Program-made: the position numbers and the translations under genes
Shown here: positions 3,015 to 42,224 of the stretch, piece after piece
How the letters are laid out: every line of letters starts with the position of its first letter
How positions within the stretch are numbered: position 1 is the stretch's first letter
The notes under the pieces: model-generated
Database searches by the model: none
What the model saw: the letters and a program-made list of their open reading frames with translations, nothing else
What the model was told of the DNA's origin: nothing
Assembly (NCBI GenBank): GCA_965116015.1
Contig: OZ220477.1
Span: 2,189,704-2,253,703 of the forward strand
Direction: 5' to 3'
From: Dehalococcoidia bacterium
GTDB lineage: Bacteria > Chloroflexota > Dehalococcoidia > Lucifugimonadales > Australimonadaceae
DNA: 64,000 nucleotides

Positions 3015-3238
3015 CAGAGGGTTCCTCGGGAGCGCGCTCGGGGGCTGGCGTCCTGGTGGAGGGGGTGCGGTTGCGAGGGCAGTTTACGGCAAGGGCTTTG
3101 CTGGCGCGGAGGGGGGCGGTTGTTGGTTGCGGCTCAATCGGCGCCGACGTGGTATGCTGCGGCTGTCTGTCAGGAGCGGCGATTTTCCTCCTGCTCCTGA
3201 TTGCGAGGGAACAGGGCTACGGATGCAGGAGGCGACGC

Positions 3239-4591
3239 ATGCTTACGGCAGAGATGAATGACCGGTTGGCCAGAGTGGGGCCGGGCACGCCTTGCGGCGA
3301 GCTGTTCCGGCGGTATTGGGTTCCGTTTCTTCCCGCGGCCAAGCTCGACGAGGATCCTGTGCAGCCTGTGCGGCTCCTTGGGGAGGATCTTACGTGCTAT
3401 CGCGACAAGTCTGGCAAGGTCGGGCTCATTGGTCAGCGTTGTTTGCACAGGGCGGTTGATCTGCGGTGGGGGATTCCGGACGAGAACGGGTTGCGTTGCC
3501 CGTATCACGGGTGGCTGTACGACGCGGAGGGTTCGTGCGTCGAGTCTCCGCTGGAGGCGCGGCCGGATATGTTCAGGGGGCGTCTGAAGCTGCCGGGCTA
3601 TCCGGTGCAGGAGATGGGAGGCTTGTTGTTCGCGTATATGGGGCCGGAGCCCGCGCCGCTGCTGCCTCCGTGGGATCTGTTCGTGTGGCCGAATGCGGTG
3701 CGTCAGATCGGCTACGCTGTGCTCAACGCGAACTGGCTGCAGTGTCAGGAGAACACGGGGGATCCTACGCATGGGGTGTATCTCCATGGGTACTTGCTGC
3801 AGTATGTGCTGGAGAAGATGGGAGACAGAGACCGCCTTGCGCAGATGAGCGACAGTTTCCAGCGCGGCGGGGTGGGCATTAAGGATCTGTATGTTCACGC
3901 GACGCAGTACGGTATGGAGAAGGGGGTGATCTTCTCGAAGGAGCTGGGAGCCGACGCGGATCGGCGGACGCGGCATTCGACGGTGATTTTCCCGTTCTAC
4001 ACTGAGCAGAACGCGGCAGGGGCTCCGTGGAGCGAGTTTCAGATACGCGTGCCGATCGACGATGAGCATACGTATCACATCTCGTACAACTGTTATGCGG
4101 CGCCGCCGGGGGTGGAGGCGCCCAGGCAGGGGATGATTCCTTACTACGAGGTGCCTATCTGGGACGCCGACGGCAAGCCTGTGCTCGATTGCGTGCTGAA
4201 CCAGGACTTCATCGGGTGGTGGTCGCAGGGGCCGCTTACGGACCGGACTGCGGAGAATCTTGGGCGCACGGATATTCCGGTTGTGTTCTTGCGGAAGCAG
4301 TTGGATGAGAATATTCGGGTTGTGGAGGACGGGGGGGATCCGATGAATGTGTTCCGCGACGCCGAGGGTATGGGGGATATTCTGTATGGGGGAGGACAGC
4401 CGGCGGAGCAGTGGCTGGACCCGAATTGGGCGAGCAAGGGGGTGGAGCTGAACAGGAATACGCGGGCGCAGTATCACAAGGGGGGTGCTGTGTGGGAGTC
4501 GGACCGTTATGGTCCGGCTGTGCCTTTGGTGGGGGAGCTGCATCGGCGTATGGAGGAGGCGGTCGAGAAGGCGTCGGCGTCGGGGGGTTAG
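3239..4591 (+). CDS. Rieske [2Fe-2S] non-heme iron oxygenase, alpha-subunit-like
   Basis: Rieske motif CLHR...CPYHGW and mononuclear iron motif DPTHGVYLH. The internal ATG at 3239 fits family N-termini; the ORF is open from 3056. Confidence 0.85.
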   Translation: MLTAEMNDRLARVGPGTPCGELFRRYWVPFLPAAKLDEDPVQPVRLLGEDLTCYRDKSGKVGLIGQRCLHRAVDLRWGIPDENGLRCPYHGWLYDAEGSCVESPLEARPDMFRGRLKLPGYPVQEMGGLLFAYMGPEPAPLLPPWDLFVWPNAVRQIGYAVLNANWLQCQENTGDPTHGVYLHGYLLQYVLEKMGDRDRLAQMSDSFQRGGVGIKDLYVHATQYGMEKGVIFSKELGADADRRTRHSTVIFPFYTEQNAAGAPWSEFQIRVPIDDEHTYHISYNCYAAPPGVEAPRQGMIPYYEVPIWDADGKPVLDCVLNQDFIGWWSQGPLTDRTAENLGRTDIPVVFLRKQLDENIRVVEDGGDPMNVFRDAEGMGDILYGGGQPAEQWLDPNWASKGVELNRNTRAQYHKGGAVWESDRYGPAVPLVGELHRRMEEAVEKASASGG

Positions 4592-4608
4592 GGGCGGGTT
4601 GCGGGGGT

Positions 4609-4636
4609 CCCTCTCCTGCGCAAGCAGGAGAGCGGG
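4609..4636. terminator. GC-rich hairpin between convergent genes (ccctctcctgc-gcaa-gcaggagag(c)ggg), no clear U-tract
   Basis: Stem of 9+ bp with a GNRA-type loop, read directly. It sits between the stops at 4591 (+) and 4644 (-). Confidence 0.35.
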
Positions 4637-4643
4637 GCTACGT

Positions 4644-5286
4644 CTACTGGTTGGCAGAATAAGCGGCGGAGGATTCTATGCTGTAGAGTCTGTCCAGCCA
4701 GCCTATGAACCTCTGCGCCAGCGCTCCGTCGGTTTGCAGGTCGCCTGCGCTGATGGCCGCGCCTATGCGTCCGGGGATCTCTCGCGTGGCTAGCCAGGCG
4801 TGGATCTGAGCGCGCAGTGATTTCCCTTTCTTGAAACTTCGCTGCTCTTCAGGGATGCACTTGATGTAGCCGCTTGCGCACAGCCATGCAGGATCGTTTT
4901 CGGGGATCATGTCTTCGACGAAATCTTCGAGCTCTCCGGCGGAGTGATTATCGGGCATGAGCCAAACGCCTACGCGGGGGCGCCGAGGGACGCCGTCAGG
5001 CAAGCCGGGCAGGATTGTGCCGTTCGGTTCGGGATGTTGCGGCAGTTCTATGGCTGCTTCTTTGAGCTTGGCGGTTAGTTGCTCCCAGCGTTGATCGATA
5101 TGGTCGTTAGCGTCCACCAATATACCAACGACCATACGTCCTGGCTCGACTACGCGAGGCCGTATCTCCTTAAGGAGATTGTTGATACCCCCCCGCGTTT
5201 ATCACTTCAAAGTTCGAGCTTCGCGAAATACGGAGAACAAAATGCTTGTCGTTCCGCCCCTCGACTAGAAGCACGCGGTCCGGCAT
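4644..5286 (-). pseudogene. DUF3226-type small Toprim-like protein, interrupted by a +1 frameshift in a G7 run (C7 on the + strand, 5188-5194)
   Basis: ATG 5286 gives MPDRVLLVEGRNDKHFVLRISRSSNFEVINAGG, then a TAA at 5172-5170. The 4644-5135 ORF frame continues upstream as ..GGINNLLKEIRPRVVEPGRMVVGILVDAND. Removing one G fuses the two parts into about 213 aa. The motif WLMPDNHSAGELEDF...IHAWLA...PG..IG.AI matches my recollection of DUF3226 proteins. Confidence 0.6.
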
Positions 5287-5290
5287 AAGC

Positions 5291-6376
5291 CTATCGAACC
5301 TCTATGCCGTGTTCAGCGGCAGTAGCTAGTTCCTCTTCGGAATAACCCACGGGGTAGAGGCCGTCAGCGTCCTTTTCCAGGCGTATGACAGTTCCATCTA
5401 CAGTGGAATCGGTTGCGGCCTGCGCGAAGCCCTGCACGCAGTCGAAGCTGTGCGTTGTGGCCAGCGCCTGTATGTTGTTCGCCTCCGCCATCTGGAACAC
5501 TACGCGCCAGAAGGCTGACTGGATGGAATGGTGTAGTCCGTTTTCAGCCTCATCGAGCAGCAGAATGCCGTTTCTGCTGTTGGCAAGAGCCAAGGCGATG
5601 CTGAAAAGCCGAAATGCGCCGCCACCGAGGCTCTTTAGCGGCACGCGGCGAGTCTGCCCACTGACCCCCGCCATAGCTCGACGTTCAGATCTTGTCCTCT
5701 GGACTGCTCCCAGAACGAGGATGTCCTCTATGCCTAGCCCAAGTATTTCCTGTAGGGGTTGGATGGCAAGATCCTCTCGCCGTTCCGCCGCCGCCTTGTT
5801 CCACAGGCGATCCAAGTCGTCATTGCCCATAACTCCTACCTGCGCGAATTCGCAGTCTATCTCCGGCGGGAGATCCACATCTCTCGGTATACGGCTCAAA
5901 CGATAAAGAGGCCATGGCGGGTATGCGCGTTGCCTGAATGCGATTTGAATCCCTCGACTAATGCGCTCCAGGTCAATGGGATCTAGGTCGTAGAGAGATT
6001 CCTCGTTGTCGGGCTCAACAGAATCGTAGGGCAAGGAGACTAAATCTATGTTGAGTAGATCGCCTTTTGGGCCAATGGCAATGCGAGGCTGAGGCGCTGC
6101 GCCCCTGTTGTAGAAAAGGGAAGGCCAGTCCACATCGATGCGTAAGCCTGTCTTTTCCTCGAGCGTCTCTTCCCTGCCCAGCAGCAATTTCGCTAGCGTG
6201 GACGAGCGACCTCTCGCTGCGTAGGCGCGCACTGCCTCCAGCACGGTGGTTTTGCCGACGCCGTTCTTCCCGACAAGCAGCGTGACGCGGCCCAAGCGGG
6301 GGATGTCCAGTTTCTCGATTCCGCGGAAGCCGTCTATGTGGAGGTCAGGGATGTGTAGCTCGTTTGTCTCGCTCAT
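5291..6376 (-). CDS. ABC/SMC-like ATPase (AAA_21/AAA_15-type, OLD/AriA-like ATPase without a nuclease domain)
   Basis: Walker A GKNGVGKT, signature-like SLGGGAFR, Walker B ILLLDEAENGLH and H-loop TTHS. Visibly lower G+C than the neighbouring genes. Confidence 0.8.
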   Translation of the reverse strand: MSETNELHIPDLHIDGFRGIEKLDIPRLGRVTLLVGKNGVGKTTVLEAVRAYAARGRSSTLAKLLLGREETLEEKTGLRIDVDWPSLFYNRGAAPQPRIAIGPKGDLLNIDLVSLPYDSVEPDNEESLYDLDPIDLERISRGIQIAFRQRAYPPWPLYRLSRIPRDVDLPPEIDCEFAQVGVMGNDDLDRLWNKAAAERREDLAIQPLQEILGLGIEDILVLGAVQRTRSERRAMAGVSGQTRRVPLKSLGGGAFRLFSIALALANSRNGILLLDEAENGLHHSIQSAFWRVVFQMAEANNIQALATTHSFDCVQGFAQAATDSTVDGTVIRLEKDADGLYPVGYSEEELATAAEHGIEVR

Positions 6377-6557
6377 AGCCTGCTCCGGTCGACTTGCGCT
6401 GTGAGTCTAGCGCCTCGATGCATCGCGGGCGTTATACTCCCGGCGCCCGATGGGTGGGCGGCCTGGGTTGGGGGCAGGCTCGGGTTGCGGCGGGCGGGGT
6501 TGTGTAATCGGCGCGGGCAGGCGTTGCGCTTGCGGGCGCAGCTAGCGAGGTGAAGGG

Positions 6558-12296: not shown

Positions 12297-12536
12297 GGCT
12301 CTGGGGTCGGGGGAGAGGCTGCCAGGACAGGGTACGTGGAGGGGCTTGTACGGCGCAACGGTGAAGTGTCGCGCAGTCGACGGTTTTTCGTGGTTGTGCG
12401 CCAGGTGCTTGCGGAGGGGCGAGGCTCCGGCGCGGTGAAGCGTCGTGTAGGGGGGATGGCTTGCGGGGTTGGGAGGGGGCTGATTCCCGCGCGGTGAAGG
12501 AGTGGGGTCTGCGGGGGGGGGGCGAGAGGGGCGGGG

Positions 12537-19564: not shown

Positions 19565-21293
19565 CCTGCCTCCGGTTGTGATTATGGCTGCGGCGGCAGC
19601 GCTGGCCGCGCTCATTCCTGCGGCTGTGGTTCGGAAGGCGCTCGTGGTTGGGGCTCCGCTGCTGACGCTGGCGCATCTGGCGTGGGGGATCGACGACGGG
19701 GATTCGCTGCGCGTCGCGTGGTTGTCGCTCGAGCTCGAGCCGCTGCGCGCCGACGGTCTGAGCATCGTATTCGGGTATGTGTTCGCCATCGCCGCGGCGA
19801 TCGGGGGGTTGTACGCGTGGGGCCTGAACGATCGCGGTCAACAGGCCGCGGTGCTTGGGTATGCGGGTTCGTCGCTTGGGGTTGTGTTCGCGGGCGATCT
19901 CGTAACGCTCGTGACGATGTGGGAGCTGATGGCGCTTACGTCGGCGTATCTGATCTGGGCGGGGGGATTCCCCAAGTCTCACGGGGCTGCGATTCGCTAT
20001 CTGTACGTTCACCTGGTTGGCGGGAGCGCGCTGCTTGCAGGCGTTCTGTGGCATATGGGCGGGGGGGGGTCGATCGAGTTTTCGCTGTTCGAGAGTTCGC
20101 CTGCGGGCTGGCTTGTGCTTGCGGGGTTCGCGGTGAACGCTGCGGTGGTTCCGCTTCATGCGTGGTTGTCGGACGCGTATCCGGAGGCGGGTGTGGCGGG
20201 GAGCGTGTTTCTGAGCGCGTTCACGACGAAGACGGCTGTTTATGCGCTGGCGCGGGGGTTCGCGGGCTGGGAGGTTCTCATTGCTCTCGGCGTGGTTATG
20301 GCGCTCTACGGGGTGGTGTTCGCTGTTCTGGAGAACGATATCCGGCGCTTGCTTGCGTACCATATCATCAGTCAGGTGGGGTATATGGTGGCGGCTGTCG
20401 GGATCGGGACGGAGATGGCGATCAACGGGGCGGCCTCGCACGCTTTCGCGCATGTGCTTTACAAGGGGCTGCTTTTTATGGGAGCAGGGGCGGCGATCTA
20501 CGCGACCGGGCGGCGGACGCTGACGTCGCTTGGGGGTATCTCCGACCGCATGCGGTTGGTGGTTGCGCTCTATATGGTTGGGGCGTTCGCGATTTCGGCG
20601 TTTCCGCTGTTCAGCGGGTTCGTGTCGAAGTCGATGGTTACGTACGCGGCCAAGCAGGAGCATCTAGATCTTGTGGTGGCGCTCCTGTATCTGGCGTCGG
20701 TGGGGACGTTCTTGCATACGGGGCTGAAGCTGCCGTACTTCACGTGGTTCGGGCCGCGGCGGGACGATATTCGGGTGGGGCGTGTGCCTCGCAGCATGAT
20801 TGCGGCGATGTTCGCGGCGGCGGCGCTGTGCATCGGGATAGGCGTGTATCCGGATGCTCTGTATCGCTATCTGCCCTACGAGGTTCATTACGAGCCTTAC
20901 ACGGCTGATCATGTTGTGCAGACGCTTCAGATGCTGGGGTTCACGGCGATCGGGTTCTGGCTTCTGCGGAGCAGGCTTGGGGGGGAGGCGACGGCGACTA
21001 TCGACACCGACTGGTTTTACCGGAAGGCGCGCGCTCCGGCGCGGATTCTCGTTCAGGAGCCTCTGGAGGCTTTGTTTTCGTACTGCGAGCGGGCGGTTGG
21101 CGCGGCAACGCAGGCGGTTGTTGTGATGGCGACTGCGCCGTCGCGGGGGTTCGCGCGGCTCCTTACGCTCATTGCTTACGGACGGCGGCACGGCCCGGAG
21201 GCCGCGCTTGCTCTGCTGGGTCGCCCGCCGCTTGGGTTCGCGCTGGGAGGGGTGCTTCTCACTGCGGCGGTTGTGCTGCTCCTCGGGCGCTGA
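19557..21293 (+). CDS. Antiporter-like large subunit 3 with C-terminal extension (MrpA/NuoL-like)
   Basis: Contains LHAWLSDAYPEA. A C-terminal amphipathic segment of about 90 aa plus a final TM suggests a lateral-helix-like element. Confidence 0.8.
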   Translation: MSSLPPVVIMAAAAALAALIPAAVVRKALVVGAPLLTLAHLAWGIDDGDSLRVAWLSLELEPLRADGLSIVFGYVFAIAAAIGGLYAWGLNDRGQQAAVLGYAGSSLGVVFAGDLVTLVTMWELMALTSAYLIWAGGFPKSHGAAIRYLYVHLVGGSALLAGVLWHMGGGGSIEFSLFESSPAGWLVLAGFAVNAAVVPLHAWLSDAYPEAGVAGSVFLSAFTTKTAVYALARGFAGWEVLIALGVVMALYGVVFAVLENDIRRLLAYHIISQVGYMVAAVGIGTEMAINGAASHAFAHVLYKGLLFMGAGAAIYATGRRTLTSLGGISDRMRLVVALYMVGAFAISAFPLFSGFVSKSMVTYAAKQEHLDLVVALLYLASVGTFLHTGLKLPYFTWFGPRRDDIRVGRVPRSMIAAMFAAAALCIGIGVYPDALYRYLPYEVHYEPYTADHVVQTLQMLGFTAIGFWLLRSRLGGEATATIDTDWFYRKARAPARILVQEPLEALFSYCERAVGAATQAVVVMATAPSRGFARLLTLIAYGRRHGPEAALALLGRPPLGFALGGVLLTAAVVLLLGR

Positions 21294-42104: not shown

Positions 42105-42205
42105 AGCGTGCTGTTCAGGGGAGCCGGCCCGGCGGGCTGGCTGAGAGGCTTACGAGCGACCCTATGAACCTGACCTGGGTTATGCCAGCGGAGGGAGAGC
42201 GACGT
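42105..42205 (+). promoter_or_regulatory. TPP (THI-box) riboswitch
   Basis: caGGGGAGCc...GCUGAGAggc...ACCCuaUGAACCUGAcCUGGGUuAUGCCAGCGgAGGGAg matches the THI-element consensus. The downstream genes are thiamine-related. Confidence 0.85.
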
Positions 42206-42224
42206 GCGGAATCAGCGTCATAGA

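Follow-up and report, generated by a model that had tools for sequence, protein, structure and literature searches.

One of the major classes of bacterial immunity, diverse in its mechanisms, pairs an ABC ATPase with a Toprim protein (OLD, PARIS, Gabija, AbiL, HEC-01). The two adjacent genes on the minus strand at positions 4644-6376 of the window, that is, of the whole stretch of 64,000 nucleotides analysed here, raise the question of whether they belong to this class, in which of its families they should be placed and whether the copy is still functional. A preliminary description had regarded them as a candidate defence module of a split-OLD-type, PARIS-like kind. The pair is identified here as a divergent member of the two-gene candidate system PDC-M38, probably within the split OLD-like ATPase + Toprim systems.

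The first gene (5291-6376, minus strand) is an intact open reading frame encoding an ABC ATPase of 361 aa, which carries the four motifs of the AAA_15/AAA_21 kind that had been noticed earlier, namely Walker A (GKNGVGKT, residues 36-43), signature (SLGGGAFR, 249-256), Walker B (ILLLDEAENGLH, 271-282) and H-loop (TTHS, 307-310), and, as also remarked then, has no attached nuclease domain, being without a fused Toprim. Its TAG stop occupies 5291-5293, and the ATG of the partner gene indeed lies 4 nt further on, at 5286. This second gene, encoding a DUF3226 protein (4644-5286, minus strand), is interrupted by a single surplus G within a run of seven (5188-5194; C7 on the plus strand). The product read from the ATG begins MPDRVLLVEGRNDKHF and ends after 38 codons at a TAA stop (5' fragment, 5170-5286), while the rest of the homologous reading lies in a different frame and ends with the stop codon at 4644-4646. 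Removal of one G from the run restores a product of 213 aa with LLVEGRND at residues 6-13, GILVDAND at 54-61 and WLMPDNHSAGELEDF at 108-122; the length and the motifs are those described before, with the spacing between the two acidic motifs being about 48 residues and not 60.

Both genes lie on the strand opposite to that of their two neighbours, and synteny with annotated relatives indicates no integrase or transposase within about 5 kb of them in the window, in agreement with the preliminary description. The A/T-richness reported there is likewise evident, the GC content of the pair being 57.5% against 62.5-64% in the two flanking genes and 66.0% in the window, and its GC3 64-65% against 76-83%. 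An imperfect direct repeat of 24 nt on both sides of the pair (4584-4607 and 6470-6493, 79% identity) was considered as an insertion scar and rejected, since no such repeat occurs at the two syntenic loci in related genomes (L001 and L085) and G-rich runs are abundant throughout the window.

A GGAG element resembling a Shine-Dalgarno sequence can be read 6 nt upstream of the ATPase ATG (6383-6386, minus strand), and a similar GAGG element for the partner gene falls within the last ATPase codons, those of IEVR (5299-5302, minus strand). The latter, together with the 4-nt spacing between stop and start, suggests translational coupling of the two genes. The same arrangement is widespread among the relatives, the ATPase gene being directly upstream of the partner gene in all 81 related loci, with a stop-to-start spacing of 3-5 nt in 56 of them, and no fused ATPase-DUF3226 protein was found among the best 150 DUF3226 representatives. 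A perfect 9-bp stem closing a 4-nt loop (CTCTCCTGC-TTGC-GCAGGAGAG; 4611-4632, minus strand) lies 12 nt past the partner stop, and a 60-nt stretch containing it folds at -20.6 kcal/mol in RNAfold; it is possibly a terminator, one that lacks a T tract. The stem is absent from the calls of the consensus terminator scan, and the consensus promoter and terminator scans together returned nothing exceeding shuffled expectation.

Profile searches of the two proteins, including the PADLOC run that had been proposed as a check, place the pair in one family. The ATPase matches Pfam AAA_15 (5.6e-18) and AAA_21 (3.3e-15) and, over nearly its entire length, the PADLOC model PDC-M38A (PDLC04611; 1.2e-67, residues 11-361 on profile positions 4-383 of 383), and the repaired partner matches Pfam DUF3226 (5e-46, residues 4-201) and PDC-M38B (PDLC04624; 2.1e-32, residues 4-202 on positions 14-219 of 220). 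PADLOC thus assigns the pair to the two-gene system PDC-M38, with both components matched full-length. The PDC systems go back to cassettes located within BREX, DISARM and type I RM loci, and PDC-M38 is one of these phage defence candidates, proposed by guilt-by-embedding and as yet untested (Payne et al., bioRxiv 10.1101/2024.01.29.577857). The family is therefore already catalogued as a defence candidate and is less novel than the preliminary description implied. The statement made there that such pairs have not been characterised experimentally fits the literature searched, in which neither a mention of DUF3226 or PDC-M38 nor an experimental test of the family was found. The window proteins are nevertheless divergent members, the highest identities found being 63% for the partner and 59% for the ATPase, in a DUF3226 partner family that comprises 4,266 clusters at 50% identity.

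In the ATPase, the Walker A lysine (K42), the Walker B residues D275 and E276 and the H-loop histidine (H309) are invariant in 50 homologues. The AlphaFold2 (AF2) model (pLDDT 81) was matched by Foldseek to PtuA and to SMC and Rad50 heads with E-values of 3e-11 to 1e-9, and PtuA, SMC, Rad50 and retron PtuA were all matched at a probability of 1.0. The N-terminus in addition matches Ts OLD (6p74), and the NCBIfam PtuA model gives 43 bits, its cut-off being 500. The C-terminal tail reads GIEVR, and the form xIEVR is kept in almost all of the 81 related loci.

No structure was found for DUF3226 partners. The AF2 model of the repaired protein (pLDDT 90, pTM 0.85) has the topology β1-α1-β2-α2-β3-α3-β4. 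The conserved features of the protein are E9, D13, D58, D61 and the motif WLMPDN..GELEDF; in the model and the homologue columns, the near-invariant E9 follows β1 and D58-A-(D/N)-D61 follows β3, the middle residue of the DxD being Asn (DAND) in the clade of the window. Foldseek against the PDB and viral predicted structures, also among the checks proposed earlier, returned nothing significant (best E 0.2); its best low-rmsd matches in the PDB are the small Toprim protein 2fcj and the Toprim domain of RNase M5, all non-significant. Sequence and profile searches against PDB chains gave only noise. The window's own repaired partner has no Toprim match in Pfam, and the Pfam Toprim matches of its homologues cover the first motif only and lie below threshold; PF20469 (OLD-like_TOPRIM) ranks second among the families matched by 20 of 47 homologues, with weak, sub-threshold scores. 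In hhalign, where P2 Old and YbjD were each compared as one sequence, the partner LLVEG aligned on LLVEGKTE of P2 Old (E 5.7e-5, probability 66%) and both partner motifs aligned on LLVEGETE and LVDGDE of YbjD; CheY, used as a negative control, failed. A homologue search from the C-terminal Toprim part of P2 Old, made for an OLD-Toprim profile, yielded five fragments only.

The Toprim-type core suggested in the preliminary description is thus favoured by weak but converging indications, i.e. the acidic positions, the predicted topology, the low-rmsd Foldseek matches, none of them significant, the hhalign registers and the PF20469 matches. On the AF2 fold with its acidic positions, the OLD-like_TOPRIM matches and the hhalign registers, the DUF3226 partner is probably Toprim-like; in the reading preferred here, its N-terminal half forms a Toprim-like metal-binding domain and its C-terminal half is helical. 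The partner is probably a nuclease. The earlier proposal of a split-OLD-type module is accordingly sustained as one of a known kind, split OLD-like ATPase + Toprim, of which the Toprim part is probable. DUF3226 is hereby linked to the Toprim fold, and the likely catalytic residues can be named as E9, D58 and D61 in the partner and K42 and E276 in the ATPase.

The ATPase carries an insert between its Walker A lobe and its signature/Walker B lobe. This hypervariable segment (residues 61-242; 5651-6196, minus strand) is a proposed sensor or oligomerisation region; residues 101-175 show a mean identity of 22% to 49 homologues against 64-68% in the cores. The segment 5572-6215 is without nucleotide similarity to the syntenic L001 copy, though both ends align, and across the three syntenic loci the identity forms a mosaic. 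By analogy with other ATPases of such systems, the insert may act as the sensor. The pair as a whole shows 44-63% identity to its syntenic copies against 66-90% for the flanking genes. Since two related genomes carry the pair at the same site, it is not a fresh insertion in the lineage of the window.

In 67 of 72 loci the GC content of the pair is below that of its flanks, and close relatives occur patchily in MAGs of more than 10 phyla, a signature of horizontal transfer. Both observations speak against a housekeeping repair module acting on DNA gaps or breaks in the manner of RecF (ABC ATPase) and RecR (Toprim), an interpretation that would accord with the match of the ATPase N-terminus to the RecF model (6e-10), with the resemblance of its fold to SMC and Rad50 heads, with a Toprim-like partner that recalls RecR and with one locus (L082) adjoining recA-recX. 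All RecF scores are far under the curated cut-off (38.8 bits, with the cut-off at 172), the flanking genes diverge much more slowly than the pair, whose ATPase insert is hypervariable, the copies are often disrupted, and elsewhere the pair is found between HmaB and HmaC and next to RM genes. A repair function is therefore regarded as very improbable.

The genomic neighbourhoods of the homologous pairs, which the preliminary description had suggested comparing with defence loci, often lie inside or adjoin known defence systems. At two loci (L054 and L062) the pair is placed between HmaB and HmaC; at others it adjoins genes for a type III methyltransferase, a DrmMI/type IIG enzyme, Ppl + HEC-01, TIR, NYN and Schlafen-like proteins, and a defence-type neighbour is present in at least 26 of 72 loci. 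DNA methylases, AAA_15, NYN and MNT are more frequent among genes within 3 kb of the pair than among those 7-10 kb away, a comparison that is only semi-quantitative because the ORF caller mis-calls roughly a quarter of the genes in the related loci. No defence genes adjoin the pair in the window or in its two syntenic relatives, where its neighbours encode Rieske oxygenases, a methyltransferase and an aldo-keto reductase; the window pair thus has metabolic surroundings, at a site common to the two related genomes.

Toxin-antitoxin genes (HigB, HicA, PIN, MNT) also recur near related loci, and the pair could alternatively be a selfish addiction or exclusion module, similar to toxin-antitoxin systems, that stabilises the DNA carrying it or excludes rival mobile elements without a dedicated anti-phage role. 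A compact, horizontally moving two-gene cassette would suit such a module, and AAA_21 carries the Pfam annotation 'putative AbiEii toxin, type IV TA system'; this label, however, is a historical name and not a tested function. The window pair lacks accompanying mobile-element genes and one chromosomal site is held in three genomes, while Hma embedding and RM adjacency are the signature behind the validated HEC-02 to HEC-04 (bioRxiv 10.1101/2024.01.29.577857). An addiction module is hence considered improbable, and it is only partly a rival because the boundary between abortive infection and toxin-antitoxin systems is blurred.

On balance, the pair is likely to be a PDC-M38 operon with coupled genes, encoding an SMC/Rad50/PtuA-like ABC ATPase followed by a small Toprim-like DUF3226 protein, with a presumed role in defence. 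The state of the window copy is a separate matter. Because the effector gene is frameshifted (+1) in the G7 run, the copy is probably non-functional as sequenced. A programmed frameshift in the run was rejected, as every homologue reads through in one frame. The run is the sole one of at least 6 bases between 2.9 and 14 kb of the window that is not spanned by a stop-free frame of at least 450 nt, and three G runs of 6 nt elsewhere in the window likewise lack such a frame. With nearly all other runs of this length spanned by frames that stay free of stops for 450 nt or more, the assembly does not appear riddled with homopolymer indels, and the flanking genes align to their orthologues as single unbroken matches.

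These observations, together with the splitting of the effector gene, are compatible with a decaying relic, i.e. an ancestral defence or addiction module that is now a pseudogene remnant without function, in which the frameshift is real and the ATPase is inert or disappearing. Degraded copies are indeed found elsewhere, with an ATPase of only 112 aa at L087 and split or truncated ATPase matches at L009, L015 and L025. One extra base in a G7 run, on the other hand, is also the commonest type of long-read or assembly error and, apart from it, both reading frames are stop-free and all conserved residues are kept, so any inactivation must be very recent. We lean slightly towards a relic, a reading that speaks to the state of the window copy and not to the nature of the family.

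For the PDC-M38 family, a mechanism of sequestration and release can be pictured purely by analogy with PARIS, OLD, Septu and HEC-01. An oligomer of the ATPase would keep the DUF3226 nuclease inactive within a complex, the hypervariable insert would recognise a phage-derived cue, and ATP binding or hydrolysis would release or activate the nuclease, which would then cleave tRNA or DNA of the host or the phage and abort the infection. The nuclease activity and the anti-phage phenotype of the pair are likewise presumed from these analogous systems.

Somewhat more doubtful, and offered tentatively, is the idea that DUF3226 marks a separate branch of split OLD-like immunity and a cross-phylum module of its own. 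Its ABC ATPase would be minimal, at 360 aa, with the insert as a fast-evolving, recombining sensor cassette and the invariant, disordered xIEVR tail docking the effector. The target of the nuclease and its trigger would be unlike those of PARIS and OLD. The clade of the window would also be a defence module passed horizontally among sponge and coral symbionts from more than 10 phyla, one allele replacing another at fixed sites in the chromosome.

For further work on the family, the window copy, being divergent, probably broken and in a metabolic neighbourhood, adds little, and intact Hma-embedded copies such as that of L062 offer ready constructs.

Comparison with the known systems helps to delimit the pair. 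Septu provides, in PtuA, the closest fold to the window ATPase, but its partner is the HNH nuclease PtuB and that of the window is a DUF3226 protein, so the pair is not a Septu system. The OLD family and GajA share the combination of an ABC ATPase with Toprim logic, and in hhalign LLVEG and VDAxD of DUF3226 fall in register with the motifs of the Toprim domains in P2 Old and YbjD, with the similarity of DUF3226 to the OLD family lying beneath every curated threshold. OLD and GajA are single fused polypeptides, in contrast to the two genes here. With a GajA match of only 1e-16 in PADLOC, no fused Toprim in the ATPase and no GajB-like helicase among the neighbours, the pair does not belong to Gabija.

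AbiL is also a two-gene ATPase + Toprim-class system, and AbiLi ranks second among the PADLOC families matched by the ATPase (5e-42), although the match falls into two stretches, of which the best extends over no more than the C-terminal third (residues 234-361); membership was rejected, as AbiLii is an RloB-type Toprim and the window partner has neither an AbiLii nor an RloB match. HEC-01, an Hma-embedded ABC ATPase + Toprim system reported as protective in one study (PMC12881386), shares the niche between HmaB and HmaC with other loci of the pair; it differs in that the HEC-01A matches are weak (7e-13) and involve the N-terminus only, and PADLOC gave no HEC-01B match for the partner.

PARIS, classified as OLD class 4 and composed of the ABC ATPase AriA and the DUF4435/Toprim protein AriB, has the same split architecture of an ATPase and a small Toprim protein, and its ATPase, of the AAA_15/21 kind, likewise has an insert thought to sense triggers (PMC11464382). 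The window ATPase, at 361 aa, differs from AriA of about 55 kDa, and the AriA models match it at 2.3e-19 and 1e-17, far more weakly than PDC-M38A. The window partner is a DUF3226 protein, and no DUF4435 or AriB match was obtained for it at E up to 1, nor for 47 homologues at E up to 10. The PARIS-like label, taken as membership, therefore had to be abandoned, and the tRNA-Lys target remains a feature of AriB that is not assigned to the window partner. Relative to PDC-M38, the window member is divergent and its B gene is frameshifted, while the order of A then B, their adjacency, the single strand and the full-length model matches are the same.

In the ORF list and in the sequence of the minus strand alike, the ATPase gene of the pair is a 361-aa open reading frame at 5291-6376 (-), in which the motifs GKNGVGKT, SLGGGAFR, ILLLDEAENGLH and TTHS can be read. 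The ATG of the partner gene, at 5286, lies 4 nt past the TAG stop of the ATPase gene. Translation from this ATG gives MPDRVLLVEGRNDKHFVLRISRSSNFEVINAGG and reaches a stop after 38 codons, and another frame, containing GINNLLKEIRPRVVEPGRMVVGILVDANDH, runs to a stop at 4644-4646; the switch of frame falls within a G7 run (C7 on the + strand) at 5188-5194, and removal of one G yields a 213-aa product (hereafter referred to as the repaired partner). GC content is 57.5% in the pair versus 66.0% in the window, and GC3 64-65% versus 76-83% in the two neighbouring genes. The ORF list, the translations and the composition thus bear out the ATPase frame and its motifs, the 4-nt spacing, the frameshifted partner and the low GC content put forward in the preliminary description; the two acidic motifs of the partner, placed there about 60 aa apart, are separated by about 48 residues. 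Owing to the high GC content, spurious ORFs of at least 400 aa occur antisense to real genes throughout the window on both strands (such as 3170-4543 (-), opposite the Rieske gene), and ORF length alone is therefore no evidence for a gene here.

Pfam assigned the ATPase to AAA_15 (5.6e-18) and AAA_21 (3.3e-15) and the repaired partner to DUF3226 (5e-46, residues 4-201 of the protein, 208-position model), the families named on first reading. The proposed defence module is also recognised by PADLOC, with full-length matches of the ATPase to PDC-M38A (1.2e-67) and of the repaired partner to PDC-M38B (2.1e-32), and on these profiles the pair is classified as a member of PDC-M38. The PDC systems are 145 "phage defence candidates", predicted from the occurrence of their cassettes within BREX, DISARM or type I RM systems, and PDC-M38 appears in the supplementary table of the study that described them (Payne et al., bioRxiv 10.1101/2024.01.29.577857). 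Weaker PADLOC matches of the ATPase were to AbiLi (5e-42, the best stretch being the C-terminal third), AriA, mad3, GajA and PtuA; the partner gave no AriB or AbiLii match in PADLOC, and no NCBIfam model was matched above its cut-off. The earlier statement that such pairs have not been characterised experimentally agrees with the literature searched, in which no mention of DUF3226 or PDC-M38 was found and PDC-M38 is absent from the systems assayed in two studies that did test other PDC systems.

Across 50 homologues of the ATPase, G36, N38, G41 and K42 of Walker A, S249-L-G of the signature, D275 and E276 of Walker B and I358, E359 and R361 of the C-terminal tail are invariant, and H309 is conserved at 90% or above. 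Foldseek matched the AF2 model (pLDDT 81) to Septu PtuA, SMC heads, Rad50 and retron-associated PtuA (E 3e-11 to 1e-9), and the predicted structure is therefore assigned to the SMC/Rad50-class ABC heads, a short insert replacing the coiled coil. Mean identity to the homologues is 64-68% in the two cores; the insert is hypervariable, with 22% over residues 101-175 and only 8% over residues 121-140.

The two genes are coupled, an ATPase homologue lying immediately upstream on the same strand in all 81 of 81 related loci, with a stop-to-start spacing of 3-5 nt in 56 of them and an overlap in a few. The partner's ribosome-binding site, GAGG, is embedded in the codons of the xIEVR tail of the ATPase (window 5294-5308 (-), and shortly before position ~10000 in the related loci L001-L081), which is almost invariant yet predicted to be disordered (AF2 pLDDT below 50). 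Since the tail is kept almost everywhere with either Glu codon (GAG in 56 loci, GAA in 25), constraint acts at the protein level as well as on the embedded site; the tail may dock the effector or serve in oligomerisation.

The DUF3226 family gave 624 word-indexed matches and 4,266 clusters at 50% identity (E up to 1e-3). All of the best 150 representatives are stand-alone proteins, with no ATPase-DUF3226 fusion among them, and the full-length ones measure 200-245 aa. Near-invariant residues are E9, G10, D13, D58, A59, G106, W108, P111, N113, G117 and E120, and the motif after β3 is D-A-D in the broad-family consensus as against D-A-N-D in the clade of the window. In the AF2 model of the repaired partner (pLDDT 90, pTM 0.85), the fold β1(4-8)-α1-β2(27-30)-α2-β3(52-58)-α3-...-β4(104-110) is followed by a helical C-terminal half, with E9 directly after β1 and D58/D61 directly after β3. 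Toprim domains reportedly carry a Glu after β1 and DxD after β3. The model thus fits the Toprim-type core proposed in the preliminary description in topology and acidic positions, but Foldseek returned no PDB match at E below 1e-3, and none among viral predicted structures. The best low-rmsd local matches, none of them significant, were the small Toprim protein 2fcj (probability 0.63, target TM 0.44-0.45, 24% identity over 75 columns) and the Toprim of RNase M5 (6z2b, 6tg6), those of topoisomerase IA and gyrase being lower in the list. PF20469 (OLD-like_TOPRIM) was the commonest second family, in 20 of 47 homologues (best E 0.0018), covering the first motif only. With a 116-sequence profile, hhalign placed LLVEGxDD on LLVEGKTE of P2 Old, where the Toprim of that protein begins (E 5.7e-5, probability 66%), and aligned both motifs with E. 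coli YbjD (LLVEGETE, LVDGDE; 77 columns, E 0.002); CheY, a fold-alike control, was aligned in the wrong register (E 0.079). These separate tests converge, each weakly, and the partner is likely to be a Toprim-like metal-dependent nuclease.

The expected proximity of homologous pairs to known defence genes was found in at least 26 of 72 loci (neighbour clustering within about 4.5 kb; some loci come from related genomes and are not independent). In two related loci, L054 (4012-15680) and L062 (5917-14658), the pair lies between HmaB, a DNA-adenine methylase (E = 0), and HmaC, an AAA+ ATPase (3e-287 in L054; called in L062 by clustering with the L054 gene), so that the Hma-embedded niche described for HEC systems now includes PDC-M38. 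A Schlafen/AlbA_2-HATPase_c_4 gene also lies alongside the pair in L054. Six loci (L033 and five others) have a type III methyltransferase upstream and a PD-T4-4_A-like ATPase downstream. The pair directly follows a 1,442-aa DrmMI/type IIG methylase-nuclease in L088/L008, with NACHT-like and DEAD/MZB genes near, and further neighbours include a TIR/SEFIR gene and an HsdR fragment (L089), a PvuII-type RM at 9 kb (L083), HigB and HicA (L082), Ppl and HEC-01 (L037) and a Dsr2 fragment (L044). The commonest Pfam families were AAA_15/21, N6_N4_Mtase, N6_Mtase, DUF1156, PIN, NTP_transf_2, NYN and Schlafen-associated HATPase_c_4 in 130 ORFs within 3 kb, versus MFS, ABC transporters and dehydrogenases in 150 ORFs at 7-10 kb, a comparison that is semi-quantitative because of crude gene calls. 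Beside such neighbours, a toxin-antitoxin-like addiction module is an improbable reading of the pair, and a RecF/RecR-like repair pair more improbable still.

The best 80 genomic matches, with 44-55% identity to the query, are nearly all MAGs from more than 10 phyla, including Dehalococcoidia, other Chloroflexota, Latescibacterota, Bryobacterales, Vicinamibacterales, Alpha- and Gammaproteobacteria, Binatia, Spirochaetia, Nitrospirales, Rhodothermales, Gemmatimonadetes and 'Poriferihabitaceae'. Names pointing to sponge or coral occur in the titles of L002-L081 (Poriferihabitaceae, Latescibacterota, Binatia, SB06xx, RHO2 and Plut bins), and many accession series and bin names of the relatives are those of what we take to be sponge or coral microbiome projects. 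Together with the range of more than 10 phyla, these names suggest horizontal spread of the clade within this putative habitat. The GC content of the pair is below that of its flanks in 67 of 72 loci, with a mean difference of 5.5 points. In some other copies it is the ATPase gene that is degraded: only 112 aa of the protein remain in L087 (9658-9996), its matches are split in L009 (8839-9967) and L025 (4832-5963), and it is without its N-terminus in L015 (9116-9970). A cost or toxicity may lie behind the frequent decay of either gene.

The gene order in the window is periplasmic binding protein, Rieske oxygenase, DUF3226, ATPase, methyltransferase, aldo-keto reductase and PolA, and two metagenomic contigs, L001 and L085, have the same order with the pair at the same place, together with additional Rieske or UbiD genes and, in L001, a transposase. 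Comparison of the Rieske-cluster regions (L001 7464-8774 and 10691-12028; L085 7097-9667 and 12317-13672) gave one Rieske-type oxygenase paralogue in the window (3056-4591), two plus the DDE transposase in L001 and three plus UbiD in L085; the metabolic locus around the pair is therefore itself in flux. Identity to the window's proteins is 66-90% (L001) and 71-86% (L085) for the flanking proteins, 63% and 46-47% for the partner, and 44-47% and 59-61% for the ATPase. Synteny, combined with the low identity of the pair relative to its flanks, argues that it is long resident at this site but changes far more rapidly than the DNA around it; the two genes disagree in their order of similarity, as the partner is closer to L001 and the ATPase to L085. 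From the Rieske gene, nucleotide similarity to L001 extends across DUF3226 and enters the last third of the ATPase gene, is absent over the insert and is present again in the first 160 nt, a pattern suggestive of recombination or strong diversification with the insert at its centre. An imperfect direct repeat of 24 nt (79% identity) lies on either side of the pair, at 4584-4607 and 6470-6493; the syntenic loci do not share it, and similarity by chance in G-rich DNA is its probable origin.

The + strand of the window (1-64000) has an extreme GC skew (+0.21 overall, 0.14-0.31 per 4-kb block), which third codon positions track by strand (G3 0.49-0.60 in + strand genes, C3 0.67 in the - strand gene). 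The syntenic regions of L001 and L085 have skews near 0 (+0.03 and -0.02), and that of the pair is 0.004, as would be seen had the pair been under the strand bias for a shorter time. At 42107-42213 (+) lies a TPP riboswitch (RF00059; 60.5 bits, E 2e-9); nothing else in the window reaches an Rfam gathering threshold. Homopolymer runs of at least 6 bases number 104, and 100 of them are G runs (e.g. 1784-1799, 12513-12522, 20061-20069), one being a G16 run that directly follows the stop of the binding-protein gene.

Among these runs, the G7 of the partner gene is the only one of at least 7 bases that no stop-free frame of 450 nt or more spans, a lack shared by three G runs of 6 nt in other places. 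Since other long runs lie within open frames and the genes flanking the pair give unbroken alignments to orthologues, a systematic indel error in the assembly is unlikely. Disrupted copies of the pair in other genomes favour a real frameshift, although a single error in the G7 run is possible from the assembly alone, and we consider the frameshift somewhat likely to be real. The same evidence bears on the reading of the window copy as a dead relic, which is slightly favoured.

Beyond what the analysis documents, namely the families, motifs and architecture of the pair, its coupling, its mobility and its embedding among defence genes, an intact pair may work by analogy with PARIS (PMC11464382), OLD, Septu and HEC-01: an ATPase oligomer would sequester the Toprim-like effector, the variable insert would sense a phage cue, and ATP-dependent release would allow the nuclease to cut tRNA or DNA, aborting the infection. 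To this candidate family the present analysis adds a putative Toprim assignment for DUF3226, candidate residues for mutation, the occurrence within Hma and beside type III RM genes, and the mosaicism of the hypervariable insert. PARIS has a DUF4435 partner and AbiL an RloB partner, and the window pair, having neither, belongs to neither system; it also falls outside Gabija, and outside Septu though its ATPase model matches PtuA. By analogy, the pair would function like the split OLD-class systems. As systems of this kind are known and the family has been catalogued before as a candidate, the copy in the window is a new member of it, divergent and probably inactive.
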